A stretch of 64,000 bases of DNA from Alicyclobacillus sp. SP_1 (GTDB taxonomy: Bacteria; Bacillota; Bacilli; Alicyclobacillales; Alicyclobacillaceae), in contig NZ_JAMCCX010000018.1 in NCBI RefSeq assembly GCF_024706985.1, positions 1 to 64,000 of the forward strand, in the 5' to 3' direction. Positions within the stretch are counted from its first letter, which is position 1. The number at the start of each line of letters is the position of its first letter. The position numbers were made by a program, and so were the translations under genes. This document shows positions 14,111 to 35,750 of the stretch, one piece after another. The notes beneath the pieces were generated by a model, which saw nothing but the letters and a program-made list of their open reading frames with translations, was not told where the DNA came from and searched no databases.

Positions 14111-14124
14111 GGCGCACGACCGCC

Positions 14125-17584: not shown

Positions 17585-18900
17585 TGACAAAGAAGTTTTG
17601 GATTAGCACGAGTACAGTCGCGGCGGCGACGATTGTCATGGCCGCACCTTTGACAGCATTAGCTGCGTCGAGTGGACAAGCTGGCACGAGTACGGCTGGC
17701 AGCACTTACGGCAGTACCTCCCCGTCTCAGATGACTTCGCAAGCTGAAAAGAAAGTAGAATGGACTGATTTGACATCTGCGGTCGCTTACATGAATAAGA
17801 CGCAGATGAGCGCTTTGCCAGATTGGACCCTGATGGTCAACTTTGCGGACAACCACATTGTTCCGGATGTCAAGTGGTCGGCCAAAGGTCTTTCTTCGAA
17901 AGCATCCACTGGGACACTGGATAAGGAAATTTTGGCGGCGTTAGCGGACCATCTCAATCCGCAGGATCTCATGGGGCACAATCTTGTTCAGGATTTAGCG
18001 AGCCGCGAATGGACCAGTGGCAAGAATGCCGGTTACTTTGCGTCCGCTGCGGGTGCGCCGGACACGACCGATACGGGACTGTCGGTGACCGACCAAGCGC
18101 TGTCGATCTTGGCGTTGCAGGATGCGGGGGGCGTGAAGTACGACGCAGCGGCTGCCGAGAAGTGGCTTCTTGGGACCCAGCATAAGGACGGCGGATTTGG
18201 CTATCAGGTCGGCGCGAGCAGCGACTCCAACGATACCGCGTATGTCATTGAAGCGTTGGCATCCTTGGGCGATACGAGCATGTCGGGTCCAGTGGCCAAA
18301 GCCTTGGCCTATGAGAAAAAACTGCAGGTCTCCGATGGTGGATTTCTCTATGATTCAACCGCCAAAGCGATGGATGCAGACTCAGACGGCACGGTGATGG
18401 ACGCACTCGCGAGCGTGGGTATAGCACCTTCCTCGTGGGCGGTGGGGACGAACACACCCGTAACGGCGCTGCTGTCGCTTTACAATGCGAAAGTGGGCGG
18501 GTTTAACTATCAACTCTCCGGAAAGTATTCGGGCGTGGACGGATACTCCACTCGCGATGGAGCGTTTGGGTTGGCAGCCAGCCTGACCGGAAAATCCATC
18601 TTTGAGCGGCTACATTACACCCCGCTCACGAAGTGGAACGCTTACTGGGCGGCAGTCGCCAAGAAACACGGTCTGTGGATGAATCATCAATGGATGCCGT
18701 GGAGCGCTGTGAAAGAAGAGGCCGCAGCGGGATCGTACGATTCATCTCTCAACGCCTACTGGCAAGCTGTTGTCAAAAAAGGTGGCATGTGGGTGACGAA
18801 GGATGGACATCCGGTGTTCATGCCCTGGAATGAGCAGATGGCGCATGCGGCACTCGTTGGCAGTTTTGGCGCGGATTCGGTGTTTGTGGCGGGACTGTAA
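17584..18900 (+). CDS. secreted prenyltransferase/squalene-cyclase-like alpha-alpha toroid repeat protein
   Basis: signal peptide; repeats QDAGGVKYD...HKDGGFGY, SDGGFLYD, AKVGGFNYQ typical of terpene-cyclase/prenyltransferase beta-subunit repeats; last gene of riboswitch operon. Confidence 0.55.
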   Translation: MTKKFWISTSTVAAATIVMAAPLTALAASSGQAGTSTAGSTYGSTSPSQMTSQAEKKVEWTDLTSAVAYMNKTQMSALPDWTLMVNFADNHIVPDVKWSAKGLSSKASTGTLDKEILAALADHLNPQDLMGHNLVQDLASREWTSGKNAGYFASAAGAPDTTDTGLSVTDQALSILALQDAGGVKYDAAAAEKWLLGTQHKDGGFGYQVGASSDSNDTAYVIEALASLGDTSMSGPVAKALAYEKKLQVSDGGFLYDSTAKAMDADSDGTVMDALASVGIAPSSWAVGTNTPVTALLSLYNAKVGGFNYQLSGKYSGVDGYSTRDGAFGLAASLTGKSIFERLHYTPLTKWNAYWAAVAKKHGLWMNHQWMPWSAVKEEAAAGSYDSSLNAYWQAVVKKGGMWVTKDGHPVFMPWNEQMAHAALVGSFGADSVFVAGL

Positions 18901-21658: not shown

Positions 21659-21786
21659 ATGGTGGTAAAATCCTTCAAGACAAGATAATATGAAATAAAT
21701 ATCCGCGCAGGCACGGCGATGGCCGATGGTACTCTGAACACGGCCTTCGGTGACCTGCTCGTCGCCTGCGGCAAGGAGGTGGAACG

Positions 21787-22551
21787 ATGCCAGCCCTACG
21801 CGTCTTCCCCGATGAACAGAGTGGTGCCGTCTATGCTGCGGCCGTCATGGACCGGGTGATGCAGGCTCGTCGCTCTCCTGTTTTCGGTTTGGCGACGGGT
21901 TCCACCCAGATTCCTCTCTATCGGCAGTTGGTTCGAATGCATCGGCAGGGGTTATCGTTTGCCACCGTGACCACTATCAATTTGGATGAGTACGTGGGTC
22001 TGTCTACGCAATCTCCGGGCAGTTTTTCTGCGTATATGGAGCGGAACTTTTTTCGCCATGTGGATATTCCACCCGGCGCTCGCCATCTGCCTCAAGGCGA
22101 TGCACCGGACTTGGCGGCTGAGTGTCTGCGCTACGACGCTCTTCTGTCTACGCACCGTCTCGATTTGCAACTACTTGGCATTGGCATCAACGGGCACATC
22201 GGTTTCAACGAGCCGAGTACGAGTCTATCTCTGAAAACGCACGTTGTGGCGCTTCAGGACGAGACGATTCTGCGAAATTCAAGCGACTTTCCAGATGGGT
22301 CAAACGTTCCCCGCCAGGCCATCACGGTCGGATTGCAGTCCATTTTCGCAGCCAGGACCATTTTATTGCTGGCGTTTGGGCGCGACAAGGCAGAAGCGGT
22401 TGCAGAGTCCGTTTGTGGACAGGTGCGAACCTCCTGTCCGGCCAGTCTGTTGCAACTGCATCCGCGGGTAACCTATGTTTTGGATGCGGCCGCTGCTGGT
22501 CGACTCCCTGACGCGGGCCGTTTGCTCGCTCTAGAGGAGGCGGCATGGTGA
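21787..22551 (+). CDS. nagB: glucosamine-6-phosphate deaminase
   Basis: GLATGSTQIPLY, NLDEYVGL, GIGINGHIGFNEP motifs; GGAGGTGG SD. Confidence 0.85.
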   Translation: MPALRVFPDEQSGAVYAAAVMDRVMQARRSPVFGLATGSTQIPLYRQLVRMHRQGLSFATVTTINLDEYVGLSTQSPGSFSAYMERNFFRHVDIPPGARHLPQGDAPDLAAECLRYDALLSTHRLDLQLLGIGINGHIGFNEPSTSLSLKTHVVALQDETILRNSSDFPDGSNVPRQAITVGLQSIFAARTILLLAFGRDKAEAVAESVCGQVRTSCPASLLQLHPRVTYVLDAAAAGRLPDAGRLLALEEAAW

Positions 22552-23798
22552 GTGACATGACCTCTGGGAACGAGGACGGCAACTTGGGGCGCTATCGACG
22601 GCGAGTGTTACGTGCAGACTTCGTCTTGCCAACTGGAGTTCTGCGTGATGGGTGGATGGCCGTCGAAGATGGGCGAATTGTTGCCATTTGCGCTGCAGCA
22701 GACGCTGGCGTGGCGGAGTGGTTGGAACGTGGCTTCGCTTTGGAAGATTGGCGTCAGCACATGGTGTTGCCTGGTTTGATTGATGTGCACATGCACGGCA
22801 TCGGCGGTCATGACTGTATGGATATGGATGACAAAAGTTTGCCTGCCATCTCTCTGCAATTGGCGAATCACGGCGTAACTGGCTATTTGGCAACCACGGT
22901 GACGCAGAGCTTCGAGGCCACGCGGCTGACTTTGGAGCGAGCGCAGCGTTTCATGGCCGAACAGCAGGTGGCTTTCGCTTCGGGGCGGTGGACGGGTGCG
23001 CGGTTGCTCGGTGTCCACATGGAAGGCCCGTTTCTCTCGCCACAGCGCAGAGGCGCTCAAAATGGGGAGTATCTGCAGACACCGGACGTGCAGGTGCTGC
23101 AGCAACTGCTGGATGTAGCACCGGGATGCGTCCGGTTGGTGACTTTGGCACCCGAACTCGCTCAGGCAGACGCGTTGGTTCAGCACTTGGTGGATGCAGG
23201 GATTCGCGTCTCGATGGGTCACACAGATGCGACGTATGAACAAGCGGAAAAAGCCATTCAGCTTGGTGTGCAGCATGTGACACACTGTTTTAACGCGATG
23301 AGTGGGCTGCACCATCGGTCTCCAGGAGTTGTCGGCGCCACGCTACTTTCAAACCGGGTCAAAGCGGAACTGATTGCGGACGGGATTCACGTTCATCCAG
23401 CGGCAGTTCAAGTCTTGCTGCGGATGAAAGGGCGCGATGGGGTCGTGCTCATCTCCGACAGCATTCGTGCCACGGGCATGCCAGACGGCGAATACGCGCT
23501 CGGTGGACTGAAGATTCGAACAATCGATGGCACCGCGCGGTTGCCGAGTGGAGAATTGGCGGGGAGTACGCTCACCCTCGACAAGGCGGTCCAAAATCTT
23601 GTGCAGCGCTGGCAAACCCCGCTCGCGGACGCTGCGTATATGGCCTCCGCTTCTCCCGCCGAGGCGCTGCGACTGGACGGCGTGGGGCGATTGGCCGTCG
23701 GATATCAGGCGGACTATAGTATTTGGGACGCGGCCGGATGCTTGCAGCAAGTCGTCATGGGCGGAACGAGGGAGGACGCGGTGAAAGCAGCGCCGTGA
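22545..23798 (+). CDS. nagA: N-acetylglucosamine-6-phosphate deacetylase
   Basis: amidohydrolase motifs LPGLIDVHMHGIGGHD, LAPEL, HCFNAM; ATG overlaps nagB stop. Confidence 0.85.
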   Translation: MVSDMTSGNEDGNLGRYRRRVLRADFVLPTGVLRDGWMAVEDGRIVAICAAADAGVAEWLERGFALEDWRQHMVLPGLIDVHMHGIGGHDCMDMDDKSLPAISLQLANHGVTGYLATTVTQSFEATRLTLERAQRFMAEQQVAFASGRWTGARLLGVHMEGPFLSPQRRGAQNGEYLQTPDVQVLQQLLDVAPGCVRLVTLAPELAQADALVQHLVDAGIRVSMGHTDATYEQAEKAIQLGVQHVTHCFNAMSGLHHRSPGVVGATLLSNRVKAELIADGIHVHPAAVQVLLRMKGRDGVVLISDSIRATGMPDGEYALGGLKIRTIDGTARLPSGELAGSTLTLDKAVQNLVQRWQTPLADAAYMASASPAEALRLDGVGRLAVGYQADYSIWDAAGCLQQVVMGGTREDAVKAAP

Positions 23799-23939
23799 CC
23801 GGAGTAGCTGTTTTAAAAAATGGGAGCAACTGTTTTGAAAAGCGGACTGTCCGTGACCGTCATGCATTCCGCCGTCGCGCATTCAAAAGGAGTTTCTATT
23901 GATTACGCAAGACAGCATGTTGCGAAGGGAAGGAGGGAT

Positions 23940-24803
23940 GGTGTGGAACAGACGCTGCATGGAACTCACTGTATGGCTTTGCTCCAAAGTGTCTATCCAT
24001 CGCTGTCTCCAGCCGAACAGAAGGTTGCAGATGCCGTTTTGAAAGACGCAGAGCAGACGGTCTACTCTTCGGTGACGGATCTGGCAGAAAACAGTGGCGT
24101 CGGTGAGACGACCGTCATTCGTTTCTGCAGAAAATTAGGGTTTCGCGGATTTCAAGAATTCAAGTTGTCCCTCGCACAGGAGTTGGTTGGCCCGAGCCGT
24201 CAAGTTTACGGACAGGTTCAAGAGGAAGACGACCTTGCCACGATGGTGCAGAAAATTACTCTTCAAAATAAACAGGCGCTTATGGATACGCAAAGTCTGC
24301 TCCAAGAATCTATGTTGGAACGAGCGACGAACGCACTCTTAGCGGGGAGAAATTTGTACTTTTTCGGTGTGGGTTCGTCCGGTATGACGGCGATGGATGC
24401 TGAGTATCGGTTCATGCGACTCGGATTTCAGGCCCATTTTGCCTGCGATGCACACGTGATTGCCATGCACTGTTCGCTGCTCACGCGAGCGGATGTCGTC
24501 GTCGGAATCTCATCTTCAGGCAGTACCAAAGATTTGGTAGACGCCGTTCGGATTGCTAAGGAGAAAGGCGCTTACATCATCTGCCTGACCAGTCACGCGC
24601 GTTCTCCCATCACTCAATATGCCAATGCCGTTCTCCTCTCAGCGGCGAGAGAGTCTCCTCTTCAAGGAGGAGCATTCGCTTCGAAAGTGGCGCAAATTCA
24701 CGTTCTCGATGTACTGGCCACCGTTGTCTCCATGCGCAAGCGAGAAGAGACGTTTGCTGCCATGGAGAGCACTGCAAAGGCAGTGTTGGATAAACTCTAC
24801 TGA
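23940..24803 (+). CDS. RpiR/MurR-family transcriptional regulator (HTH_6 + SIS), NanR-like
   Basis: LSPAEQKVADAVLKD...TTVIRFCRKLGFRGFQEFK HTH; SIS domain GVGSSG; start at in-frame GTG after AAGGAGGG. Confidence 0.75.
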   Translation, partial: GVEQTLHGTHCMALLQSVYPSLSPAEQKVADAVLKDAEQTVYSSVTDLAENSGVGETTVIRFCRKLGFRGFQEFKLSLAQELVGPSRQVYGQVQEEDDLATMVQKITLQNKQALMDTQSLLQESMLERATNALLAGRNLYFFGVGSSGMTAMDAEYRFMRLGFQAHFACDAHVIAMHCSLLTRADVVVGISSSGSTKDLVDAVRIAKEKGAYIICLTSHARSPITQYANAVLLSAARESPLQGGAFASKVAQIHVLDVLATVVSMRKREETFAAMESTAKAVLDKLY

Positions 24804-24834
24804 CGTGCGCGGGGCAGAGAAAGGTGGTGAACGG

Positions 24835-25578
24835 ATGGATGCGGTGTGGCAACGGCTGCATGGTGGGCTGGTGGTGTCTTGCCAAGCTCAATGGGGCGAT
24901 CCGCTCTATGGCACGGAGTTCATGGTGGCGATGGCGAGATCGGCCAAACTGGGTGGCGCTTCCGGTATGCGCGTTTCGGCGGATGACCTGCCCGCCGTCC
25001 GGACGGCTACTTCGCTACCGATGATTGGACTGCAGAAGCGCCGCTATGGAGACTGTGCCGTTTGGATTACGCCGACTATCGCCGAAGTGGACTCCCTGGT
25101 TGCAGCTGGCGCCGATGTGATTGCCCTGGATGCGACCAACAGGCCTCGTCCGGGCGGGCTGAGCTTAGAGCGGCTGGTTTCGCAAATTCGAGCGAAATAT
25201 GGCGATGTTCCGCTGCTTGCCGATGTAGCGACGTGTGAAGAGGCGTTGTCTGCAGAGCGACTGGGCTTTGATGCAGTGGCTACAACCCTGTTCGGCTATA
25301 CGGAGGAAACGGCGGACGAGTTGCCGCCGTCCGTGCTCGGACTTGTTCAGCAGTTGGTGGACCGCCTGCGTATTCCAGTGCTTGCTGAAGGTCGTCTTCG
25401 CAGGCCCGAACAGGCAGCCGAATGTCTCGCTGCGGGAGCTTTTGCGGTCGTCGTCGGAAGCGCTATCACGAGGCCGCAAGAGATTACGAACTGGTTTGTC
25501 GAGAGCATGAGATGCTCGTCTCTGGGGGCATCGCATTCGCGGGAAGGGGGCAGCGGCCACGAGATGCATGGGAGATGA
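24835..25578 (+). CDS. nanE: N-acetylmannosamine-6-phosphate 2-epimerase
   Basis: LHGGLVVSCQA...GASGMRV; TIM-barrel NanE pattern; ATG 24835 after AAAGGTGG SD. Confidence 0.8.
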   Translation: MDAVWQRLHGGLVVSCQAQWGDPLYGTEFMVAMARSAKLGGASGMRVSADDLPAVRTATSLPMIGLQKRRYGDCAVWITPTIAEVDSLVAAGADVIALDATNRPRPGGLSLERLVSQIRAKYGDVPLLADVATCEEALSAERLGFDAVATTLFGYTEETADELPPSVLGLVQQLVDRLRIPVLAEGRLRRPEQAAECLAAGAFAVVVGSAITRPQEITNWFVESMRCSSLGASHSREGGSGHEMHGR

Positions 25579-26515
25579 TGGGGTTGACATTGGCGTCGAC
25601 TTGGGTGGGACGAAGCTTGCGGCGGCGCTGGTCGGGGCAGACGGGCGTGTCTCGGAGCGCGTCAGTCGCAGCACTCCTCAAACGGGGCGGGACGATGTTC
25701 TCGACGCGCTCACAGAGACCGTTCGGCATGTGCGCCAGCGAGCGTCGAAACATGGCCTAGTGGTGCAGAGTGTAGGCATTGGTACTGCTGGTCAAATCGA
25801 TGTGGTGCGCGGCGTGGTTTTGGCAGGAACGACAAACATTCACGATTGGAATAACGTGCCGCTCCGCGACGCGGTTGCGGCAGCCACTGGACTGACGACT
25901 TTCGTGGACAATGACGTTCCCGTCGTGCTTCAGGCAGAGCGCGAATTTGGCGCCGCACAAGGCTGCACCGATGTGGTCTGCTTGACGGTCGGCACGGGTA
26001 TTGGTGGGGCTGTGCTGACTGGCGGACGATTACTCCGTGGCGCTTGGGGCGGTGCAGCAGAACTCGGACACATTTCAGTGGATAAGCATGGTCCAGTCTG
26101 TGCGTGTGGATTTCGCGGCTGTTTGGAGATGTTCGCGTCCGGTACGGCCGTAGCGCGAAGAATGGCTGAGTTGACGCATGGGGACCGGAAATGGACCGGA
26201 GTCGAGGTGTTTCAAGCGGCACTCTGTGGCGATGCGCTAGCCGAGCAAGTTGTCTCTGAAGCCATTGACGCGCTTGCGTATGGAGTGGTCAGTCTCATTC
26301 ATACCTTTAATCCTAAAATCATGCTTCTCGGCGGCGGGGTCTTCTCAGAGGCGGAATGGCTTCGCGAGCGACTCGAGAACAAAGTTCACGGCATGGGCAT
26401 TCAGAGTATGGTTCAGTCTGTGCACATTCGCCGCGTATCGCTTGGAACCGATGCCGGTCTGATTGGTGCGGCCCGTTTGCGGGCGATGAGTACAATGAAC
26501 GGAGAGCTTAGTTAG
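25568..26515 (+). CDS. ROK-family sugar kinase (N-acetylmannosamine/glucose kinase type)
   Basis: VDLGGTKLAAALV N-term; Cys-rich zinc motif CACGFRGCLE; overlaps nanE stop. Confidence 0.8.
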   Translation: MGDDGVDIGVDLGGTKLAAALVGADGRVSERVSRSTPQTGRDDVLDALTETVRHVRQRASKHGLVVQSVGIGTAGQIDVVRGVVLAGTTNIHDWNNVPLRDAVAAATGLTTFVDNDVPVVLQAEREFGAAQGCTDVVCLTVGTGIGGAVLTGGRLLRGAWGGAAELGHISVDKHGPVCACGFRGCLEMFASGTAVARRMAELTHGDRKWTGVEVFQAALCGDALAEQVVSEAIDALAYGVVSLIHTFNPKIMLLGGGVFSEAEWLRERLENKVHGMGIQSMVQSVHIRRVSLGTDAGLIGAARLRAMSTMNGELS

Positions 26516-26583
26516 TCGACCACGGCGGTCGAGGATTGGACGCAGGGTGGCAGGGTGACACGTAGACTTTGGGAGGTTGGCAG

Positions 26584-27663
26584 ATGAGCAAACAGTGGCG
26601 TGTGGGCGTGGTTGGAGTGGGATCGATAGCAAAGCTTGGGCACTTGCCATTCTATCGGGATCATCCCGATGTCGATCTCGTTGCAGTGGCCGATGTTAAT
26701 CTTACACGGGCGCATGCCGTCGGCGAGGAGTATGGGATGACGAGAATCTATGGAGACGCGCTCCAGATGTTTGACGCCAAAGAGGTTGAAGCTGTCAGCA
26801 TCTGCACGGACAATGAGAGTCATGTGCCCCTCGCGATTGCTGCGATGGAGCGGGGAATTCACGTCTTGGTGGAGAAGCCGCTGGCCACCCGCTTCGCCGA
26901 TGCGCGACGGGTCGAGGAAGTGGCAAATCGGACGGGATGCTTATGCATGGTTGGGATGACGCACCGCTACCGGAACGAAGCGCAGGCGCTCCACAAAGTC
27001 GTTCGCTCCGGAGCGCTCGGTGAAATTTACTATGCGAAGGCGCGCATTTTGCGCCGGCGCGGAACGCCGGCGGGTTGGTTCACGAATCGCCAGAAGTCGG
27101 GTGGCGGGACGCTGATGGACATCGGGGTGCATGCGCTGGATTTAGGGTGGTGGCTGATGGGTGAACCCACGCTGGCCTCTGCTTCTGGAATTCTGGTCAA
27201 GGGAATTGGGCGCTACGATACGAAAATGGTGGACCGCTGGAAATCGTCGGATGCGGCGAATCAAGACAACGCCATCTTTGATGTCGAGGACTTTGCGGCG
27301 GCACTCGTGCGGTTTGAGGGCGGATCGGCCCTTCAGCTAGAAGTCAGTTGGGCCCTCAACGGTCGGCAAGACGACGCCCTCCAAGTCGAGGTGTTCGGAA
27401 GCAAAGGGGGGATTTCCCTCTCTCCACTCTGTGTTTTTGGCGAACAGGCAGGATTTCTGGCGGAGTCGCAACTGTCTGTGGACGGGAACTCGTGGTATCA
27501 GGATGAGATTGGACATTTTATCGACTGCCTGCAGGACGGAACATCGCCGCTGTCCACGGTGCAGCAGGGTGTGCAAGTGGTGGAGATGCTGGAAACCATT
27601 CAGCGGTCGGCCAGCGTGGGTTTTGAAGTCCGCAAAGTGGATGAGAGGGGGCACCGAGGATGA
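26584..27663 (+). CDS. Gfo/Idh/MocA-family NAD(P)-dependent oxidoreductase
   Basis: N-terminal Rossmann WRVGVVGVGSIAK, EKP motif LVEKPLA; GGGAGG SD. Confidence 0.75.
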   Translation: MSKQWRVGVVGVGSIAKLGHLPFYRDHPDVDLVAVADVNLTRAHAVGEEYGMTRIYGDALQMFDAKEVEAVSICTDNESHVPLAIAAMERGIHVLVEKPLATRFADARRVEEVANRTGCLCMVGMTHRYRNEAQALHKVVRSGALGEIYYAKARILRRRGTPAGWFTNRQKSGGGTLMDIGVHALDLGWWLMGEPTLASASGILVKGIGRYDTKMVDRWKSSDAANQDNAIFDVEDFAAALVRFEGGSALQLEVSWALNGRQDDALQVEVFGSKGGISLSPLCVFGEQAGFLAESQLSVDGNSWYQDEIGHFIDCLQDGTSPLSTVQQGVQVVEMLETIQRSASVGFEVRKVDERGHRG

Positions 27664-28535
27664 ACGTCGGTCTGAGCATGTACAGTGTTCACCGCCGTTG
27701 TGGCAGGGACGGGTGGGCGGTACGCGATTTTTTGGAATATTGCCGGCAACAGAACATTTCCTCCGTGGAACTGCTCGATTTGTTTTGGCTGGATGTCTAC
27801 AAGGAGCTACCGGAGACCATCGCGTTTCTGCAAGAGTACGGAATGACGGTCTCCGCCTATGACGTCCACAACGACTTCGCCTCACCCGATGCCTCGGTGC
27901 GCCAAGCAGGTCTATCGAGCGTGCGCGCTGGACTCGAGATGGCCAATGCGCTAAAGACTCGCTCTGTGCGAATCTTCGCCGGCAATGTCGCCCCCGGCAT
28001 CGACTTTGCAGCGGCTCGCGAATGGGTGGTAGAGGGACTGCGTGCGGCGGCACAATTGGCGGAAGAATTTGATGTTCAACTCGTGCTTGAGAACCATGGC
28101 CAACTCGCCGGTCGCAGCGAACAAGTGGAAGCCCTGTTGGCAGACGTGGGCTCGAAGTATCTGACGTGTGCTTTTGACACGGGAAATTTTTTGCTGGTCG
28201 CAGACCATCCGCTGCCCGCGCTCGAGCGTCTTCGCAACGTCATCGGTCACGTTCACGTCAAAGATTTTGCCCTCTCGAGCTCGGACGAAGGACTGCTCAG
28301 CACGGATGGACGACGCTATCGCTTCGTGCCGCTCGGTCAAGGTATAGTGCCAATCGCAGAGATTGTGGCGCGGTTGTCGCAACTTGGTTACGATGGCACG
28401 CTGTCGATTGAATTTGAAGGAGAACCGGACCTCAGCGGAATTGAGCGTGGCCTCGATGTCCTTCGTCCGCTCGTCGCGACGGTCACAGGCAGTGGCCACG
28501 TTTCTGAAGACACGGCGAGAGGAGACGCGCGATGA
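27660..28535 (+). CDS. sugar phosphate isomerase/epimerase (xylose-isomerase-like TIM barrel)
   Basis: AP-endonuclease-2/TIM fold pattern (LVLENHG, HVHVKD); ATGA overlap. Confidence 0.7.
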   Translation: MNVGLSMYSVHRRCGRDGWAVRDFLEYCRQQNISSVELLDLFWLDVYKELPETIAFLQEYGMTVSAYDVHNDFASPDASVRQAGLSSVRAGLEMANALKTRSVRIFAGNVAPGIDFAAAREWVVEGLRAAAQLAEEFDVQLVLENHGQLAGRSEQVEALLADVGSKYLTCAFDTGNFLLVADHPLPALERLRNVIGHVHVKDFALSSSDEGLLSTDGRRYRFVPLGQGIVPIAEIVARLSQLGYDGTLSIEFEGEPDLSGIERGLDVLRPLVATVTGSGHVSEDTARGDAR

Positions 28536-29143
28536 CAGGCATCCACCTCGCCAATCCGTCACTGCGCGCCCTACCCGAATACGCGTTGGCACGGGAACGG
28601 GTGGTCACAGGACAATTGGGTACAATTGGGACGGTTTATACGTTTTGCGGTGGTGCCTGCCCCTGGGATGTTCAGACGCCTTCGGGTGACACGGCTCCAC
28701 AAGAGGTTTCCATCTTTGAGTGGATGCTTCCAGATTTCGACTTTCTCCGTTGGTGTTTCGGGGAAGTAGAGCGCGTCTATGCGAAACATCGGGGCGTTTC
28801 CGAGAAACGTCGGGTCCATCACGCTTTTGTCAGCCTTCGCTTTGCCACGGGTGTCATCGCTTCTGCAGAAGCGTCGTGGGCGTATCCGCCAGGGTTGCAG
28901 AGAGAGTTTGAGATTGCGGGCTCCGAAGGACTTCTTCGTCACCGGAGTGGCGCACCGCCAGGGTTGGAGGCTTACGTTTGGCCGCCTCAGTCGGCCCCTT
29001 CTCTGCTCTCCATGGAGACGGGACCCAGTGCAGAAATGTCGGAGGAGGACGTGCGTGAGGCTCTGCGCATCAGCAACGCTCTCTGCGAATCCGCAACGAA
29101 CGGGTGCGCAGTGACGCTTGGGGGTGGATGTTCTTGCGCGTAG
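28532..29143 (+). CDS. Gfo/Idh/MocA C-terminal-domain-only protein (possible gene remnant)
   Basis: homology only to post-EKP C-terminal half of GFO enzymes; no Rossmann domain; ATGA overlap upstream and overlaps next gene start. Confidence 0.45.
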   Translation: MTGIHLANPSLRALPEYALARERVVTGQLGTIGTVYTFCGGACPWDVQTPSGDTAPQEVSIFEWMLPDFDFLRWCFGEVERVYAKHRGVSEKRRVHHAFVSLRFATGVIASAEASWAYPPGLQREFEIAGSEGLLRHRSGAPPGLEAYVWPPQSAPSLLSMETGPSAEMSEEDVREALRISNALCESATNGCAVTLGGGCSCA

Positions 29144-30117
29144 GGATGGTCAGTTTTGCACACATGCACGCGTATTCTTACCTTCATTGCCTGAAACAAA
29201 TTCCGGGTGTCGAAGTCCTTGGATTTTCGGACGATGACGCGATGCGCGCACAGTCGGTCGTTCAGGATTACGGGTTGAGGTATTATCCCAGTACCGTCGA
29301 GCTACTCGATGCACGCCCGGACTGCATCCTTGTCTGCAGCGAAAACACGAAGCATCTCGAGAGCGTCTTGCTGGCGGCACAGCGCGGCGTGGACGTTCTT
29401 TGCGAAAAGCCGATTGCCACCACGCTCTCTGACGCCTGGAAAATGGTTGGAGTTGCAGAGGCGTCTGGGATTGTACTCGCCACCGCTTTCCCGGTCCGAT
29501 TTAGCACGCCCGTCCGCCGTGCAAAGCAGTTCTTGGATGCCGGTCAAATGGGCCGATTGGTCGCGATGCGAGGTACGAATCACGGGCAAAATCCGGGAGG
29601 TTGGTTTGTCGATCCCGCTCTTTCCGGCGGGGGTGCGGTCCTTGACCACACGGTTCACGTGCTCGACTTGATGCGCTGGTTTGTCGGTTCCGAAGTGTGT
29701 GAAGTTTACGCGGAAGTGGGCACACGCTTTTCCGACATTCCGACGGAAGACTGCGGACTCTTGACGTTCGAGTTTGCGAGCGGCGTCATCGCCATGCACG
29801 ACCCGAGTTGGTCGCGTCCAAAGTCAAATCCGACCTGGGGCGATGTGACGTTGGAACTCATTGGTACGGACGGGGTTTTGAGAGTCGACGCGTTTGCCGA
29901 GCACTTAGACTGGTACGATGACCGTTCGCGCATGTACCGCCACGACCACTATGGGGACTCCACGGATTTGAATTTGGTGCTCGACTTTCTCACGTCGGTA
30001 CGGACTCGCCGCCGTCCGTCGGCGACTGGACTCGACGGGCTGAGGGCCCTCGAGGTTGCACTTGCTGCTTATCAGTCCGCCCGGGACGGGGCGCCCGTAC
30101 GCTTGGACCTTAAATGA
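29128..30117 (+). CDS. Gfo/Idh/MocA-family oxidoreductase
   Basis: Rossmann N-term, CEKPIA EKP motif; GGGGGTGG SD before ATG 29128. Confidence 0.75.
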   Translation: MFLRVGMVSFAHMHAYSYLHCLKQIPGVEVLGFSDDDAMRAQSVVQDYGLRYYPSTVELLDARPDCILVCSENTKHLESVLLAAQRGVDVLCEKPIATTLSDAWKMVGVAEASGIVLATAFPVRFSTPVRRAKQFLDAGQMGRLVAMRGTNHGQNPGGWFVDPALSGGGAVLDHTVHVLDLMRWFVGSEVCEVYAEVGTRFSDIPTEDCGLLTFEFASGVIAMHDPSWSRPKSNPTWGDVTLELIGTDGVLRVDAFAEHLDWYDDRSRMYRHDHYGDSTDLNLVLDFLTSVRTRRRPSATGLDGLRALEVALAAYQSARDGAPVRLDLK

Positions 30118-31282
30118 AGTTCAGACCTCCCGTGAATGGAAATGGAAGAGGGAACAGGCGTTGGCGCAGGATTTCAATCTCGCTGGACCAATGAGAAATG
30201 GGCGCATGCTCGTTGGGTGGAGTGCCTGTGTCAAAGACGAACGCGACGAGTTCTTCGGGAGTCACAGTCAGCGTGTGTTCGCCGATGGTGAGTGTAGTTC
30301 GGTTAGCGTCCGCCGGTTTGGCGCTAAGGGTGGCTGCTAACTCGGTGTCTCGCGCCTGACAGTACGGCTTCAGGTCGGCAAAGAGCTTTTCGGCAGAGAG
30401 GATACAAACGGTCCCTTGGTTTCGTTGCCGCTCTGCCTGTATCGTCTCGAGAAAGGGTGCAAGTGCGTCGTTCTCGGACTCGGAGAGGAAGAGTTGGAGC
30501 GGTCTTTGTTGTGTGCCTTTGCAGAGAATGTGATGAAAGATGGCTGCACATGCTGCAGCGTCCCCCGCCCACTCGGTGACCACGGTAGGCGCTTCGTCGT
30601 CTTCTCGGTAGGGCACAGCCAATACGGCAAAGGCGCGTACTTCTCCGTCCTGTTCGGCAACCAGCGCATGGTGCACACTGTGCGCGCAACTCGCCAGCGG
30701 GTTGGATGCAATGGCAGTAGCGAGATCGACCAAACTTTGTTCATAGCGCACCGCACGAGCGCTCGCCAGCGCGTGCACGCGAAACCAGTCCGTCGGCTTG
30801 AGTTCGCGAATCTGCCAATCGGCTCTGCCCGCAGTATGGCCGCCGTCTCGCCGAAGGTGGTTTGGCGCAGTCAGTCGATGAGCATAGGCCACGCCGAACG
30901 GCGCACAGTGAATGCGACGGTAGAGCGGGCCGTCGCCAGAGATGAGGAGAAGCGGCGCTCCCGCGGCCCGCGCGTGGTCTAATACAGCTTCAAGGACCTG
31001 CGAGGCCAGTTTGCGGCCGCGATAACGGGAGTCGGTACAGACAGAGCCGAGGGCATAGACGGGAATGCGGGCTGAGTCAACGTGTATCCAGTAAGGCATG
31101 ATGCCGAGAAACGTGACTAACTCGCCATGTTCAAACGCGCCAAAGCCTTGTCCCAGATGTGCGGAGAATAGGGCTGGGAAGGCCGTTGCCATAGAGATTT
31201 GCGTATCATCGCGAAACGTTCGGTCGGCTAACGCGGCAGCTTTCGCATATTCTTCTTTGTGAAGCCTGCGGATGTCAAACAT
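30110..31282 (-). CDS. Eis-like GNAT acetyltransferase (GNAT + SCP2-like C-terminal region)
   Basis: about 390 aa; GNAT core YRGRKLASQVLEAVLDHA; start at ATG with GAGGAGGG SD. Confidence 0.65.
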   Translation of the reverse strand: MFDIRRLHKEEYAKAAALADRTFRDDTQISMATAFPALFSAHLGQGFGAFEHGELVTFLGIMPYWIHVDSARIPVYALGSVCTDSRYRGRKLASQVLEAVLDHARAAGAPLLLISGDGPLYRRIHCAPFGVAYAHRLTAPNHLRRDGGHTAGRADWQIRELKPTDWFRVHALASARAVRYEQSLVDLATAIASNPLASCAHSVHHALVAEQDGEVRAFAVLAVPYREDDEAPTVVTEWAGDAAACAAIFHHILCKGTQQRPLQLFLSESENDALAPFLETIQAERQRNQGTVCILSAEKLFADLKPYCQARDTELAATLSAKPADANRTTLTIGEHTLTVTPEELVAFVFDTGTPPNEHAPISHWSSEIEILRQRLFPLPFPFTGGLNFI

Positions 31283-31467
31283 GGAAGCCCTCCTCGGAGC
31301 GAGACTAAGGCCATCATAGCGGAAAAATTTCTCTCCGGCCATGAGTCGAAGTTGAGAGGGAATAGATGGAACAAAGAGAATCTTATTCTATAGCGCATTC
31401 AGACATCCGCAGTGTTTTGGATGCTCGGATCGACATCTATCGCACATTGCAGAATGGAGGAACGACG

Positions 31468-32307
31468 ATGGCTGGAGTAAGGCAAGTCATTAGCACGCTG
31501 AGCAACGACGGCAAAGAGCTGATGGGGCCGGATGTACTGGTGTTTCACTACCCGGACAACAGCATCATCAATGGTTCGCTACTGACCTGTGAGAGCAATC
31601 ACTTTGCCGTGTTGAAGTCGCGTGGCGCGATTTTGAACGTGTACGAAACCGGGCAGTATACGGTTTCTACACCGGATCGGCCCATTATTGGCGTGTTTCA
31701 ACAAGCATTTTTTGGCGGCACCAGTCCCTGGCAGTATGAAGTGTTGTACATCAACAGAGCCAAGCTGATTCTCGAAGTGCAAGGGGTGGCCTATTCACGA
31801 GAAATGGCGGAAATGGGCTACCACGTCAGTTGCTATGTTCACGTGGATTCGAAAGATGATGCCTTGCATCTCGTGCAACGCATGCCGATTGCGGGTCACT
31901 ACGTGACCATTAAAGAGGTCAATGCCTACGCAGCTCCCGTTATTGAACAGTCCATCAACAAAATCGTCCAGGTTACGGAACTCGAGCGTGTCAATGAGCG
32001 CATGCCGGAAATTTTAGAGTTGGTTAAAGACCATCTTCAGGAATTTTTAAAAGTCTATGGGCTCACGCTGAACGACGTGAAGGCGCTGATTTTTCCGAAA
32101 GATGAGCGTATGAAAGAACTGATTTCGCTGCGGGCGTTTGGCCTCTCCGAAATCGACGCAGTGCGCTACTACACTGCGATGTTAATGGCGCAGCGCGGCA
32201 TTGTCTCGGCGCCCAACATGGCGGTCGGGCAGCCGTATTTCGTCGGCAATCCGCAGATGGCCGCCCTGCAAAGCACTCCATTGGAGTTGCCGAAAGACCA
32301 TGAGTGA
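31468..32307 (+). CDS. SPFH-like COG4260 ('virion core protein'/YdjI-like) family protein
   Basis: PDVLVFHYP...SLLTCESNHFAVLKSRG...AEV-like...YINRAKLILEVQG pattern matching COG4260; GGAGGA SD. Confidence 0.55.
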   Translation: MAGVRQVISTLSNDGKELMGPDVLVFHYPDNSIINGSLLTCESNHFAVLKSRGAILNVYETGQYTVSTPDRPIIGVFQQAFFGGTSPWQYEVLYINRAKLILEVQGVAYSREMAEMGYHVSCYVHVDSKDDALHLVQRMPIAGHYVTIKEVNAYAAPVIEQSINKIVQVTELERVNERMPEILELVKDHLQEFLKVYGLTLNDVKALIFPKDERMKELISLRAFGLSEIDAVRYYTAMLMAQRGIVSAPNMAVGQPYFVGNPQMAALQSTPLELPKDHE

Positions 32308-32818
32308 CCTTGTCCGCTACGGCGTCCAGATGGCGCCGCCGTCTGCGTCGACCACGCTCCTGCGAGGCATTCTGAACGCATGGACGTACAATCCAGCTCG
32401 ACCCGAAAATGGGGCTCGCGACCGCAGCCAAGCGGTTCGTAATGCCTGCGACGAGGCGTTGGCGGCCTACTCGGACCACCTTCGGTCAGAACTGAGTCGC
32501 CTCCGTCGAGCTTTACCGGAGCCGACCCGAGACAATCCGTATCCGCCGATGGATGGGTTACAGGCTGTTCGTGAACTCGAGCGTTATCTTCAGCAGGTCG
32601 ATGCGTTGCGGGTGCGCATTCAAGGTGCCGCGATTCCACCGAATGACATCATTGGGCATGGCCGGGCTGATAATCGCCTGTTGTTCATCGAATTGGAATC
32701 GGCCGATCGCGATTTGCTCCAGGCCCTCCTCGAGCTTCATGAACACTCAATTTCCGTAGTAGAGGGGATATTGGCGCACCGGGAGGACATTCTGCGCCAG
32801 TTTGACAGTCATCTCTAA
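32301..32818 (+). CDS. hypothetical alpha-helical protein translationally coupled to YdjI-like gene
   Basis: ATGA overlap with upstream stop; no recognisable domain. Confidence 0.4.
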
Positions 32819-32924
32819 AAATATTTTTTGTGCAACTTTGAAACATATTGCTGCTCCCTGTCGTCTCATCGGTGTACTTCTAGGCAAGACCTCGTGACCG
32901 ATGAGACGAAGGGAGAGTCTATGG

Positions 32925-35234
32925 ATGAAGCGACGGGTATATCTATCGGCAGCAGTGGCGGCATCGTTGGCGATGGGGGCGGTGTGTGCCGCGTCTCCGC
33001 CAGTAGCGCTGGCCGCAACTGCGACAAAGGCCCCCACCTCAAGAATTTCGATGAAGAAAGCGGAACAACTTGCAGAGCAGCGGGTGGCGATTCCAAAGAC
33101 ATGGGTTCTCACTCAGGCTTCGTACAATGCCAACCAAGTCTATGGCGAGAGCACATACTATTTTACTTGGCAACCGTTTTCGGATGAAAGCGACAACAGC
33201 GTATCTATGCAAAATGAATCGGTCACGGTCAACGCAACAACCGGCAGTATCGTCAGCGTATACCGTTCCAGTCCGACGAATCACTTTCAGTTTCCAATTC
33301 CGGTCAACGAAAAACAAGCAAAAGGCATTGCTCTGAGCTTGGTAAAGCGCATGTATCCGACGGTCTCGAACAAAGTTCGGTCCGTACCCCTAACACCTGT
33401 TTCTGGACCACTTTCCTATGGCATTACGTACAACTTCAATTTCGAGCGAATTAAAAACGGTATTCCGGCGCCGTTCGACGGATTGGACGTCCTCATTGGA
33501 GGTCACGGACATTTCCAAAGTGTCAATACGAATTGGACGGATGCCCACTTTCCGAGTTCCAAGCACGTTCTGTCAGAAAAACAGGCGCAAGCTATCTACA
33601 AGCAGAATCTCGGGCTGCATTTAGCCTATGAGCAAATTTTTTCTGCGTCCGGTGAAGGTCACTGGCGCCTAGTTTATAAACCGATGAAGGTTCCCAGTTT
33701 TACTTTTTGGAACTTCCAGTACAATAATGCACAATTTCCAAATCCCACGTTTGCCATTGACGCCAAGAATGGACACCTAGTCGAGTCGAACGGACAAACG
33801 CTTCATCTTCCCGCTGTTTCCACCTTGAAACCCGTCGTTCCTGGAGGGCCTTCCGTTTTGCCGGACACTCTTCACGCCAATTGGACCATGACACAGTCGT
33901 TAGAGCACGCCGAGCAGTTGCTGAACGTGCCATCAACGGTCACACCTTCGTACACGTCTCGAAGCTTGGAACACGGCAATGTAGAGTGGAACTTCTCTTG
34001 GAATCTAAGCGGAGATAGCCATGTGTATGCACAAGTGGATGCCACGCGCGGACTGGTCGTCGATGCTAGTCGCTATAACAAATCACTCCCACTGGCGCCG
34101 CTTTCTACAAAGAAGCAAAAGACGAAGGCAACGACGTCTGCTTCGAAGGCACCGCTGACCCAAGCAGAAGCCGAGAAAGTCGCCATTCGCTTTCTTCAAA
34201 AGGCTCTTCCGGAAGACACAGGGGCCATCGCTCTTGTTCCCGGAAATGCGGGAGTTCCTAATGGGAATAAAGTCGCCAATTATGACCTTGACTGGCTTGT
34301 TCATGGGATTCCCGTCGAGTCATTCAATGATCTCAGTGTCAATCGGACAACTGGACAAGTTACGCAGTATTCACTGAGTGTCCCTCGTCACATGAAAAAT
34401 TTCCCATCGCCAGAGCATGCCATTTCTCTCGACGATGCAGAACAAGTATGGCTGACGCATCGGCCTCTACAACTGGTTTATGGTAGGACGCAGATTCAGT
34501 ACAAGGTCGCCAAGACTGGCGGCAAGGTTCCTGCGTCGAGTCGAAAAATTCTCCTGCTCTATGTTCCGATGACGACAACGGGTGGAACGGGTTCGTTGGA
34601 CGCGCTGACGGGTCATTTTGTGGGCTCTGCCAACGCCAGTTCGCTCACTTCGAGTATTCGTGACCTGAAGAACGTGGAAGGGGGCGCACAAATTCGCCTA
34701 CTGGTTGAACACGGGCTTCTCAAGGTGGGGCCGCATGGGAATGTCCATCCGCATCAACCCATGACCGTCGGTGCTTTCGTAAAATTAGTGATGGGAGCCC
34801 TTGTTTCACCCTTTTCTCCGGAGAATTCCTTGTCGGTTACCGAGTTGCATCACGCGCTGTCGGGCACATCCAAATCGAATCCTGCGTATCAAACCATTCG
34901 TCAAGCGCTGGAGGAGGGCTGGTTGCCAAGCAATCGTGTGGTTCATCCGAATGCATTCATCAGCCGATGGGATGCGTCCCAATTGTTGCTGAAAATGCTC
35001 GGGGATGGTCCATTGCTCAAAGAGTCTGACATCTTCACGCTGCCGGACAGTGCCAAGCAGCAGGTCTCAAAGAACGATCGCGCTGCCGTGGCGATGGCCA
35101 TCGGGTTAAAGCTGTTCGCGCTTGACAAGAATGGCAAATTTAATCCGCAACAGCCAGTCCAAATCGACCAGGCTGCGGTTGCCGTCGTACGTTCGGCGGT
35201 CCTCATGCCGATGAGCAACAATGGAATGAATTAG
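32925..35234 (+). CDS. secreted S-layer-homology (SLH) protein with N-terminal PepSY/YpeB-like repeats
   Basis: signal peptide AAVAASLAMGAVCAASPPVALA; three C-terminal SLH-like repeats; GAAGGGAGAG SD. Confidence 0.7.
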   Translation: MKRRVYLSAAVAASLAMGAVCAASPPVALAATATKAPTSRISMKKAEQLAEQRVAIPKTWVLTQASYNANQVYGESTYYFTWQPFSDESDNSVSMQNESVTVNATTGSIVSVYRSSPTNHFQFPIPVNEKQAKGIALSLVKRMYPTVSNKVRSVPLTPVSGPLSYGITYNFNFERIKNGIPAPFDGLDVLIGGHGHFQSVNTNWTDAHFPSSKHVLSEKQAQAIYKQNLGLHLAYEQIFSASGEGHWRLVYKPMKVPSFTFWNFQYNNAQFPNPTFAIDAKNGHLVESNGQTLHLPAVSTLKPVVPGGPSVLPDTLHANWTMTQSLEHAEQLLNVPSTVTPSYTSRSLEHGNVEWNFSWNLSGDSHVYAQVDATRGLVVDASRYNKSLPLAPLSTKKQKTKATTSASKAPLTQAEAEKVAIRFLQKALPEDTGAIALVPGNAGVPNGNKVANYDLDWLVHGIPVESFNDLSVNRTTGQVTQYSLSVPRHMKNFPSPEHAISLDDAEQVWLTHRPLQLVYGRTQIQYKVAKTGGKVPASSRKILLLYVPMTTTGGTGSLDALTGHFVGSANASSLTSSIRDLKNVEGGAQIRLLVEHGLLKVGPHGNVHPHQPMTVGAFVKLVMGALVSPFSPENSLSVTELHHALSGTSKSNPAYQTIRQALEEGWLPSNRVVHPNAFISRWDASQLLLKMLGDGPLLKESDIFTLPDSAKQQVSKNDRAAVAMAIGLKLFALDKNGKFNPQQPVQIDQAAVAVVRSAVLMPMSNNGMN

Positions 35235-35499
35235 CTCGCTGTCTCCCTGTTTTCATCGCGATCGCCCGATGGCTAACTGCATAGAAGCGGTCGGGCGAAT
35301 CGCGAATGTCAACACGCGATGGGTGGAACAGGCATTGGCGAAGGAGCACAGGATTTTCATGCTACACTAAGACATGTCAGAATGAGAGACTGTGGAAAGG
35401 AGCTAGGTTCGAGTTAATTCCCCGCACAAAAAGGCACCTACCACGTTTTTTCAGCCAGGAAGACCTGGATTTGATCCGAGAATGGATTAATGAACCTAC

Positions 35500-35750
35500 A
35501 ACGACGACCTACGGAGGGCACACGCAGAGAACAAACTCGACATTCGGATGCGTAAATACTTGCGCCCAAAGCTGCTCGTGATGGATGAAGTCGGATACTG
35601 GCCATTTGGGCCGGAAGAAACCAACTCATTCTTCTAACTCGTCAGAACCCGTTATGAACACGAAAGCATTGTCTTGACAAGCAACAAAAGCTTTGCCGAA
35701 GTGGGTCAAATCAAATCCGGCGTCGACACATTTAGCTGAGCAGCTACAAA
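35500..35750 (+). pseudogene. IS21-family IstB ATPase 3' remnant with internal stop
   Basis: RKYLRPKLLVMDEVGYWPF...SFF*...RYEHESIVLTSNKSFAEVGQI matches IstB C-terminus (LLIIDELGY / RYE..S.I.TSN..F..WG); TAA interrupts. Confidence 0.6.

Follow-up and report, generated by a model that had tools for sequence, protein, structure and literature searches.

The 64-kb stretch of Alicyclobacillus sp. SP_1 DNA analysed here (contig NZ_JAMCCX010000018.1, positions 1 to 64,000; hereafter the window) carries at 21787-30117 one dense plus-strand array of nine genes, nagB-nagA-rpiR-nanE-ROK-Gfo1-TIM-GfoCt-Gfo2, in which a set of amino-sugar genes is followed by genes derived from Gfo/Idh/MocA oxidoreductases and a gene for a TIM barrel (Table 1). 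The broad claim that these genes would serve one amino-sugar pathway, using keto-sugar chemistry and independent of N-acetylneuraminate lyase (NanA), is well supported by synteny. To the more specific reading, drawn from sequence and analogy, that the nine genes form a catabolic operon bringing a compound that contains N-acetylhexosamine (HexNAc), and not sialic acid, into glycolysis via keto-sugar chemistry, we give about an even chance. The chemistry as such is already known; what would be new is its coupling to NanE, NagA and NagB without NanA, together with a recurrent non-catalytic relic of a Gfo enzyme.

A conserved array of amino-sugar and oxidoreductase genes

About 50 open reading frames (ORFs) over the full length of the window were scanned by ORF listing and by Pfam and NCBIfam searches. 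A preliminary description, made from the sequence, had listed nagB, nagA, an RpiR-family regulator gene, nanE, a kinase gene, two Gfo genes and a TIM-barrel gene, and all of these were recovered on the plus strand where it had placed them. A third Gfo-derived ORF, GfoCt, had been missed, so that the cluster has three Gfo-derived genes where two had been counted. The reported lack of NanA and of a transporter holds across the whole window: no NanA or other protein of the dihydrodipicolinate synthase (DHDPS) family and no sugar transporter of any class (sugar ABC, PTS or MFS sugar permease) was found, the ABC systems present being a molybdate/tungstate-like one, an energy-coupling factor (ECF)-type one behind a cobalamin riboswitch and an FtsX-type one.

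Within the array, the junctions nagB/nagA, nanE/ROK, Gfo1/TIM, TIM/GfoCt and GfoCt/Gfo2 are overlaps of 4-11 nt (7 nt are shared by the end of nagB and the start of nagA, and 11 nt by the end of nanE and the start of ROK), and the remaining junctions are gaps of 31-68 nt, apart from a sole longer gap of 144 nt 5' of rpiR. Good Shine-Dalgarno sequences stand 5' of nagB, rpiR, nanE and Gfo1, and no terminator-like hairpin was found in any intergenic gap of the array. Because the genes overlap or are closely spaced and the gaps lack a terminator, the array reads as a single operon, or at most as two (nagBA and rpiR-to-Gfo2). Promoter and terminator scans gave no more matches than shuffled sequence did, and in the operon leader, too, the promoter scan yielded no match above the shuffle expectation, so that the promoter was not located. 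Rfam searches returned no riboswitch or other RNA element within the cluster, and repeats inside the operon matched at chance level only. A shared RpiR operator was sought as an inverted repeat in the intergenic regions of 11 loci, where nothing conserved was found. The 144-nt gap itself (23799-23942) holds a near-repeat, CTGTTTTAAAAAA / CTGTTTTGAAAAG, a possible operator that was not found conserved in other loci.

The host belongs to an acidophilic environmental lineage of the Alicyclobacillaceae, in which a sister metagenome-assembled genome (MAG), GCA_026627105.1, encodes a protein 99% identical to Gfo1 on a 13.4-kb contig that is collinear with window positions 25175-35404 at 99.2% nucleotide identity. 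The guanine-plus-cytosine (GC) content is 0.50-0.58 across the window. Horizontal transfer of the cluster was considered and gave no signal, since its GC content of 0.576-0.579 is close to that of the flanks.

To place the array in a wider context, we scanned one genome per GTDB species with a Gfo1 alignment (14 homologues), which yielded 80 loci, taken with 10-kb flanks and named L0xx; the alignment was needed, as a scan with the single Gfo1 sequence gave no confirmed relatives. The window proteins were then compared with all loci in a tblastn matrix, and the ORFs of 25 loci were clustered. The closest Gfo1 relatives come from 35 non-redundant loci (L002 and L004-L037), of which 13 have NanE within 10 kb, 8 others have NagA and one more has a ROK kinase; the figures for the 47 more distant loci are 1 for NanE and 5 for NagA. 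The combination of Gfo and amino-sugar genes thus occurs in at least 21 loci from more than 10 genera, in gene orders that vary while the two gene sets stay interleaved. Its carriers are Alicyclobacillus, Neobacillus, Bacillus, Fredinandcohnia, Thermoanaerobacter, Paenibacillus, Cohnella, Lysinibacillus, Rossellomorea, Mangrovibacillus, Ornithinibacillus, Sediminibacillus and several uncultured Bacillota. For instance, NanE-ROK-Gfo1-TIM, with mid-Gfo-Gfo2 (see below) further on, is found in Alicyclobacillus and a JGI contig (L004-L006), NanE-Gfo1-Gfo1'-TIM in Thermoanaerobacter (L009, L010), and TIM-relic-Gfo2-NagA in the Lysinibacillus group (L017, L022, L024, L030). Judged by this gene order, the link of the Gfo and TIM genes to the amino-sugar genes is not accidental, and the preliminary description was right to tie them to NanE, the kinase, NagA and NagB: they lie in one operon here, and the combination is conserved across many Bacillota genera.

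Neither NanA nor a recognised glycoside hydrolase was found in L002 and L004, the two loci with full precomputed Pfam assignment, and both have oligosaccharide-type ABC importers, relatives holding one or two transporters in the cluster. No NanA-type protein was identified among the annotated conserved neighbour clusters, of which the sole DHDPS-like one (c22) was below the Pfam threshold. The NanA-independent, non-canonical entry that had been proposed is the natural reading of a conserved combination without an identified NanA. The presence of N-acetylmannosamine (ManNAc)-6-phosphate epimerase and ManNAc kinase is usually taken to indicate sialic-acid use; in this genome and in those of many environmental Bacillota, both are found without the lyase and are instead tied to DgpA-like oxidoreductases and keto-sugar TIM barrels. 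Neither the literature on NanE and Gfo proteins nor NCBIfam yielded a paper or a curated model of this gene combination.

Several accessory genes recur in the related loci, all of them absent from the window. They include CUT1-type sugar ABC importers, whose binding protein is closest to MBP1 (4R9F), which we take to be a manno-oligosaccharide-binding protein, and Opp-type importers closest to OppA/MppA, as well as genes for a Metallophos phosphoesterase, a GDPD phosphodiesterase, a CE7 acetyl esterase, extra TIM barrels, an M55 D-aminopeptidase-like protein, MR_MLE enzymes and a heparinase II/III-like lyase; the Thermoanaerobacter version of the cluster adds a GH4 glycosidase. Among the accessory genes, the one most regularly found in the NanE-Gfo clusters (L002, L004-L011) encodes a DUF4855 protein (e.g., L005 5553-7253, minus strand; L011 11096-12199, plus strand), which in its secreted forms has an F5/8-type-C domain; L011 has a short cytoplasmic form, encoded between two Gfo genes. 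For DUF4855 there was no PDB relative at E <= 1 and no NCBIfam model, and no relevant literature was found. None of ten accessory proteins compared with NCBIfam reached a cut-off.

The encoded enzymes

Equivalog-level matches, as for the use of N-acetylglucosamine (GlcNAc)-6-phosphate, were reached by both NagA and NagB, by the latter narrowly. NanE contains both signature motifs, LPMIGLQKR and VGSAITR, and its Gln, Arg, Asp and Glu active-site positions match; these motifs and residues have been described for the NanE proteins of Staphylococcus aureus and Clostridium perfringens (PMC8482478). The kinase had been called NanK, a name that comes from gene position: a ROK-family kinase is indeed present, its gene translationally coupled to nanE, but it reaches neither the NanK cut-offs (147 vs 283 bits and 133 vs 450 bits) nor the ROK glucokinase cut-off (197 vs 260 bits). 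Six other loci have a relative of it, with 41-50% identity, at most 10 kb from Gfo1; in L004-L008 this kinase directly follows NanE. Similarly, what had been called NanR is an RpiR-family regulator, the more specific name being an inferred one. The rpiR ORF is open from 23820, and we place its likely start at the GTG at 23943, behind a GGAGGG ribosome-binding site, because of this site and of the orthologue length of 285-286 amino acids. RpiR is the best-conserved protein of the cluster, with 59-71% identity to the RpiR proteins of L004-L008 and L011 (Alicyclobacillus to Bacillus).

Gfo1 has the motifs E97-K98-P99 and D179...H183, which are invariant in the alignment with its 14 homologues. 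Its best match among all PDB chains is DgpA/DgpA1 (7XR9/9M3D), at 164-166 bits over residues 5-349 with 32% identity over 336 positions, the next chain scoring 103 bits. With the family profile DgpA scores 270.6 bits, the next chain 143, glucose-fructose oxidoreductase about 135, levoglucosan dehydrogenase 129.5 and inositol dehydrogenases 83-123. These comparisons support the view that Gfo1 is of a sugar/glycoside 3-oxidoreductase-like kind, with DgpA as its nearest solved relative, in keeping with the sugar 3-dehydrogenases that the preliminary description had named among its options.

For the family profile of the TIM barrel, the nearest protein is Art22 (8Z1I) from the aurantinin cluster (151.8 bits over the full length); aurantinin B carries a 3'-keto sugar (PMC8302727). 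Weaker matches are to AsbF, DgpC1 (9M3B, 53.9 bits in the N-terminal half only), IolE and the 2-hydroxy-3-keto-glucal hydratase (8RO4, 28.7 bits), and 7BVR/7XRF give 29 bits. For the TIM protein of the window itself, no identical sequence was on record. TIM-barrel orthologues are present in 19 other related loci.

Gfo2, in which the nucleotide-binding loop is atypical (GMVSFAHMH), has as its nearest solved relatives 3EZY and the 1,5-anhydro-D-fructose reductases 2GLX and 4KOA (85-93 bits). Its orthologues, at 46-58% identity, adjoin a further Gfo gene or its relic in 15 loci. This further gene encodes a protein of about 330 amino acids, here called mid-Gfo, which in related clusters is encoded directly 5' of Gfo2 and has retained the motifs GAGTMG, CEKP and IHDFD.

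In the window, the place of mid-Gfo is taken by GfoCt, which consists of the C-terminal alpha/beta domain only: the Rossmann domain and the EKP lysine are deleted, the catalytic His is changed to Pro, and there are two internal deletions. As read from its sequence, GfoCt cannot be catalytic. It is 38-43% identical to residues ~120-330 of the full-length orthologues in L004-L008 and 35% identical to the L029 copy. Among 1.84 billion representative proteins, the short form was found only as the sister MAG copy, the other close matches being full-length proteins, or contig-end fragments in which the His is kept. The gene has an ATGA start-stop overlap with the TIM gene, an open frame of 203 codons and 98% protein identity in the sister MAG; relative to that genome (99.2% identical), four synonymous and three non-synonymous differences are too few to judge selection.

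A comparable relic was found in seven Bacillaceae loci (Lysinibacillus, Rossellomorea, Mangrovibacillus, Ornithinibacillus and Sediminibacillus), where the slot between TIM and Gfo2 holds a protein of about 225 amino acids, c12, without a Pfam or NCBIfam hit. By hhalign (probability 94.7%, E = 6e-8), c12 is a degenerate Gfo C-terminal domain without catalytic residues, more degenerate than GfoCt. Since it is a second, independent case beside GfoCt, catalysis has, on these alignments, been lost more than once in the subunit of the mid-Gfo slot. GfoCt may be decaying, as a remnant or pseudogene, or may act as a structural partner of Gfo2, and a recurrently degenerated, Rossmann-less Gfo subunit might conceivably be kept beside Gfo2 as a non-catalytic partner.

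Table 1. Features of the nine-gene array, its leader and its downstream neighbour in the window, and the c12 relic in related loci.
Feature	Coordinates	Strand	Evidence and remarks
Operon leader	21659..21786	+	AAGGAGGTG ribosome-binding site 6 nt 5' of nagB ATG; sequence reading
nagB, glucosamine-6-phosphate deaminase, 254 aa	21787..22551	+	PF01182; TIGR00502 237.6 bits vs cut-off 236.9 (marginal)
nagA, N-acetylglucosamine-6-phosphate deacetylase, 417 aa	22545..23798	+	TIGR00221 317.6 bits vs 225.65; Amidohydro_1
rpiR, RpiR/MurR-family regulator, ~286 aa	23943..24803	+	HTH_6 and SIS (Pfam)
nanE, N-acetylmannosamine-6-phosphate 2-epimerase, ~247 aa	24835..25578	+	PF04131 E = 5e-58; NF002231 263 bits vs 189
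ROK-family sugar kinase, 315 aa, candidate ManNAc kinase	25568..26515	+	PF00480 E = 1e-62
Gfo1, Gfo/Idh/MocA oxidoreductase, DgpA-like kind, 359 aa	26584..27663	+	Pfam; EKP and D-x3-H motifs intact
TIM, xylose-isomerase-like TIM barrel (AP_endonuc_2), 291 aa, candidate keto-sugar lyase or isomerase	27660..28535	+	PF01261 E = 8e-38
GfoCt, relic of a third Gfo/Idh/MocA enzyme (mid-Gfo), 203 aa	28532..29143	+	PF22725 only (Gfo C-terminal domain)
Gfo2, Gfo/Idh/MocA oxidoreductase, 327 aa, candidate keto-sugar reductase	29134..30117	+	Pfam; EKP and D-x3-H intact
Eis-like GNAT acetyltransferase, 410 aa	30110..31342	-	PF13527/PF00583; convergent, stop overlaps Gfo2 end by 8 nt
c12 relic	L017 15536-16207, L022 15541-16212, L024 15539-16216, L027 12980-13666, L028 14906-15607, L030 15528-16238, L037 14115-14813		Between TIM and Gfo2

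Proposed pathway and competing explanations

In the pathway that we propose, Gfo1, using nicotinamide adenine dinucleotide (NAD), would oxidise a ring hydroxyl, most likely that at C3, of a HexNAc glycoside, an anhydro-HexNAc or a modified HexNAc, and the resulting keto group would acidify the neighbouring C-H. The Art22-like TIM barrel would use this keto group to eliminate a substituent or to isomerise the sugar, after which Gfo2 would reduce the keto group, making the sequence redox-neutral and releasing free ManNAc and/or GlcNAc. The ROK kinase would then form ManNAc-6-phosphate, NanE would epimerise it to GlcNAc-6-phosphate, NagA would take off the acetyl group, and NagB would yield fructose-6-phosphate and ammonia; RpiR would probably sense a phosphorylated intermediate via its sugar-phosphate-binding SIS domain. 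NanE might be needed if elimination across C1-C2 and re-addition scrambled or inverted C2 to the manno configuration, or if the substrate already contained ManNAc. We infer the position oxidised, the choice between elimination and isomerisation, the product, the specificity of the kinase, the effector and the substrate. If the proposal is true, oxidise-eliminate-reduce breakdown, so far glucose-based (levoglucosan, C-glucosides and 3-keto-disaccharides), would extend to N-acetylated amino sugars, a widespread unnamed gene set that includes DUF4855 would gain a function, and automatic calls of sialic acid catabolism in such genomes would be corrected.

The oxidise-eliminate-reduce order is proposed because the enzyme set matches that of the levoglucosan route and resembles that of a 3-keto-glycoside route in Bacteroides. 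In Bacillus smithii, levoglucosan is converted to glucose by oxidation, elimination, hydration and reduction, carried out by a Gfo protein, TIM barrels and another Gfo protein (PMC7676230). The LgdA-LgdB1-LgdB2-LgdC pathway is thus similar to the module described here in its Gfo dehydrogenase, TIM barrel and Gfo reductase, in being redox-neutral overall, in passing a plain-sugar product to a kinase and in coming from a thermophilic member of the Bacillota. It differs in that the LgdA model NF052479 gives only 108 bits with Gfo1 and 78 with Gfo2 against a cut-off of 650, and in that the module here is coupled to NanE, NagA and NagB, which implies an N-acetylated product. In Bacteroides thetaiotaomicron, BT2156-BT2160 break down disaccharides via a 3-keto intermediate (PMC8121099) and likewise comprise two Gfo-like dehydrogenases and an IolE-like TIM barrel. 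However, the BT_2158 and BT_2159 models score 53.9 and 47.1 bits with Gfo1 and 39.6 with Gfo2 against cut-offs of 750 and 650, no DUF1080 3-keto-glycoside hydrolase is present in the window, and the proteins here are cytoplasmic as opposed to periplasmic and Tat-exported.

Further parallels lie in C-glycoside deglycosylation and in certain glycosidases. DgpA of the gut strain PUE, a Gfo/Idh/MocA protein with bound NAD(H), oxidises the C3'' hydroxyl of puerarin, which lets the TIM-barrel complex DgpB-C break the bond in a beta-elimination-like manner (bioRxiv 10.1101/816074; structures 7XR9, 9M3D and 9M3B). Gfo1 is a full-length homologue of DgpA with EKP and D-x3-H intact, a TIM barrel directly follows it, and C3 oxidation leading to beta-elimination fits the chemistry proposed. 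The module here departs from the DgpA system in its TIM barrel, which resembles Art22 and has only weak similarity to DgpC1, in lacking a two-subunit B/C pair, in its context of amino-sugar catabolism and not of flavonoid glucosides, and in having a dedicated reductase, Gfo2. GH109 enzymes are NAD-dependent glycosidases of the Gfo/Idh/MocA fold that work by oxidation, elimination, addition and reduction at C3, a mechanism shared by the GH4 glycosidases, which are likewise NAD-dependent. The mechanism of GH4 has been described as analogous to the levoglucosan route (PMC7676230). In both families all steps take place in one active site, whereas here they appear to be split over separate proteins. 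Beyond these systems, it speaks for the proposed chemistry that the TIM profile matches lyases and dehydratases of keto substrates (DgpC1, AsbF, IolE and the 2-hydroxy-3-keto-glucal hydratase) and that some related loci carry a GH4 enzyme with the same chemistry.

Several observations weigh against this reading. None of the NCBIfam equivalogs for IolG, IolE, LgdA, BT_2158/2159 or UDP-GlcNAc 3-dehydrogenase was reached by Gfo1, Gfo2 or the TIM barrel, the identity of Gfo1 to DgpA is only 32%, and a role for Art22 was not found in the aurantinin literature searched. The window has one TIM barrel where the levoglucosan route needs both an eliminase and a hydratase, and the related operon L011 has Gfo1 and no TIM barrel at all. 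Because the neighbours are heterogeneous among the relatives (peptide-type Opp transporters, an M55 peptidase, MR_MLE enzymes and a polysaccharide lyase), the substrate may differ between lineages. Finally, the window copy is without the transporter, DUF4855 and phosphodiesterase genes of its relatives and its mid-Gfo is crippled, so the pathway may be incomplete or decaying in this genome.

That last point leads to a rather improbable alternative, namely that this is a decaying or partly disabled copy in which the Gfo and TIM proteins no longer feed NanE, NagA and NagB, the organism having lost half of mid-Gfo as well as the genes for the transporter, the DUF4855 protein and the phosphodiesterase. 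NanE, NagA and NagB might then survive for GlcNAc/ManNAc scavenging or cell-wall recycling only, which would fit either ancestral mechanism. In favour of decay, no transporter is present in 64 kb, against the one or two in the clusters of relatives, and GfoCt, whose short form is unique to the lineage, has lost its Rossmann domain, both catalytic residues (Lys and His) and two internal segments. Nevertheless, the other eight genes are intact with their catalytic motifs preserved, GfoCt keeps its ATGA overlap, open frame and near-identity to the sister MAG copy, and the independent c12 relic in the same slot of seven loci implies that a non-catalytic form is tolerated or useful. A different mechanism, which we consider unlikely though slightly less so, is epimerisation of a free rare HexNAc: Gfo1 would oxidise it, the TIM barrel would invert an adjacent stereocentre (as do ketose 3-epimerases and IolI/IolO), and Gfo2 would reduce it with opposite or same stereochemistry, so that an allo-, altro-, talo- or galacto-HexNAc became ManNAc or GlcNAc with no glycosidic bond cut. 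Low-score matches of the TIM barrel to tagatose/psicose 3-epimerases, L-ribulose-5-phosphate 3-epimerase and IolI/TM0416 point in this direction, as do the resemblance of Gfo2 to stereospecific keto-reductases such as 1,5-anhydrofructose reductase, the single TIM barrel of the window and the lack there of an oligosaccharide-type transporter. On the other hand, the relatives have oligosaccharide- or peptide-type ABC importers and secreted DUF4855 proteins bearing carbohydrate-binding modules, which suggests oligomeric substrates; the strongest TIM relatives of known chemistry are lyases and dehydratases; and the best Gfo1 relative acts on glycosides.

Two further explanations are far less probable. 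In Ruminococcus gnavus and Escherichia coli, a Gfo/Idh/MocA enzyme occurs in nan clusters with nanE and nanK (PMC7535918, PMC7315737), and the preliminary description had pointed to this NanOx/YjhC type, by which a Gfo enzyme would turn 2,7-anhydro-N-acetylneuraminic acid or 2-deoxy-2,3-didehydro-N-acetylneuraminic acid into N-acetylneuraminic acid and a NanA encoded elsewhere would yield ManNAc. The R. gnavus NanOx cluster and E. coli yjhBC share with the window NanE, a sugar kinase, NagA, NagB and an RpiR-type regulator beside a Gfo protein, but no NanA, sialidase or sialic-acid transporter (NanT, SiaPQM, SAT ABC or SSS) is present in the window, and its Gfo proteins are not NanOx or YjhC orthologues. 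R. gnavus NanOx (RgNanOx; 6Z3B/6Z3C) matches Gfo1 at 49.5 bits over residues 9-194 only (6Z3B), the Gfo1 family profile at 85 bits over positions 1-206 only, and Gfo2 at 57 bits over residues 65-278; YjhC gives 53 bits with Gfo2 and no match to Gfo1 at E <= 1e-10. In RgNanOx, His-175 replaces the Asp of the triad (PMC7535918), whereas Gfo1 (MDIGVH) and Gfo2 (LDHTVH) have the ordinary D-x3-H with Asp at this position. The suggested affinity is therefore not borne out, and since without NanA no ManNAc would be formed from anhydro-sialic acid, the anhydro-sialic-acid route is unsupported. With the annotated related loci equally without an identified NanA-type protein and a host of acidophilic environmental lineage, we disfavour this explanation as the most improbable of all. 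Very improbable, too, is a coincidental neighbourhood, in which the Gfo and TIM genes would form a module for inositol or neutral sugars and have no relation to the amino-sugar genes. The best NCBIfam scores of Gfo2 and mid-Gfo are indeed to IolG and UDP-GlcNAc 3-dehydrogenase, all below threshold. The preliminary description had named a grouping with inositol dehydrogenases, without co-regulation with the nan genes, as the outcome that would count against it. We found instead that the IolG model TIGR04380 gives 128.5 bits with Gfo1 and 130.6 with Gfo2 against a cut-off of 355 and the IolE model TIGR04379 42.5 bits with the TIM barrel against 290, so that none of the three reaches the IolG or IolE equivalog cut-offs of myo-inositol catabolism, and that both Gfo genes lie in the nanE operon. 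Moreover, this operon has translational overlaps, its two gene sets recur interleaved across the loci and genera described above, and no other inositol genes (iolB/C/D/J) were recognised in the window or the annotated neighbours.

Returning to the proposed oxidise-eliminate-reduce pathway, a particular and distinctly improbable form of it, for which the context comes from distant relatives, is that Gfo1, TIM, (mid-Gfo) and Gfo2 might act as a multi-protein "oxidative beta-N-acetylmannosaminidase" that salvages ManNAc-containing fragments of cell-wall glycopolymers. We know of no hydrolase described for the beta-ManNAc bond, and the cell-wall-polymer literature searched contained no mention of an N-acetylmannosaminidase. 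In this scheme, C3 oxidation with elimination would cleave the 1,2-cis beta-ManNAc bond, candidate substrates being the linkage disaccharide ManNAc-beta-1,4-GlcNAc(-phosphate) of teichoic acids and secondary cell-wall polymers, or pyruvylated-ManNAc repeats. ManNAc-beta-1,4-GlcNAc-phosphate is the conserved linkage unit of such polymers (PMC8784642, PMC7086022), and in S-layer-bearing Bacillota the polymer repeats carry pyruvylated beta-ManNAc (PMC6030368). Such a role would explain NanE and a ManNAc kinase without NanA, and in the relatives the Metallophos, GDPD, CE7 and M55 proteins, the OppA/MppA-like importers and the lack of a glycoside hydrolase; it would also suggest, in concrete terms, what becomes of cell-wall polymers that contain ManNAc.

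Neighbouring genes and further features of the window

The convergent GNAT gene that overlaps the end of Gfo2 is kept in the sister MAG, and its product has no PDB or NCBIfam match; we regard it as a neighbour whose membership in the system is uncertain. Another GNAT protein of the same Pfam family is encoded inside the A. pomorum cluster (L002 4897-5976), with similarity to the window GNAT at superfamily level only.

Upstream of the array, a cobalamin riboswitch at 12873-13056 on the plus strand (Rfam RF00174, 92 bits) lies 5' of an operon with genes at 13244-18900, which encode a DUF4430 protein, a membrane protein, a fused double ABC ATPase, an ECF S-component and a secreted prenyltransferase-like alpha-alpha-toroid protein. 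This riboswitch-led operon looks like an ECF-type corrinoid uptake system.

Downstream, a 3.9-kb segment of low GC content at 35404-39347 (0.425 vs ~0.55) has no counterpart in the sister MAG (99% identical), which at this site has about 600 bp and a differently oriented D12 methyltransferase gene. The segment encodes, on the minus strand, a Dam-like D12 N6-adenine methyltransferase (37120-37965) and an overlapping 426-amino-acid DUF6996/DUF6997/DUF7226 protein (35850-37130), and is probably a swapped restriction-modification cassette. Beyond it, at 39709-41489 on the minus strand, a gene for an extracytoplasmic function (ECF)-type sigma factor (40947-41489) is followed by one for a 413-amino-acid protein without a Pfam match, possibly its anti-sigma partner; the sister MAG has both genes as well.

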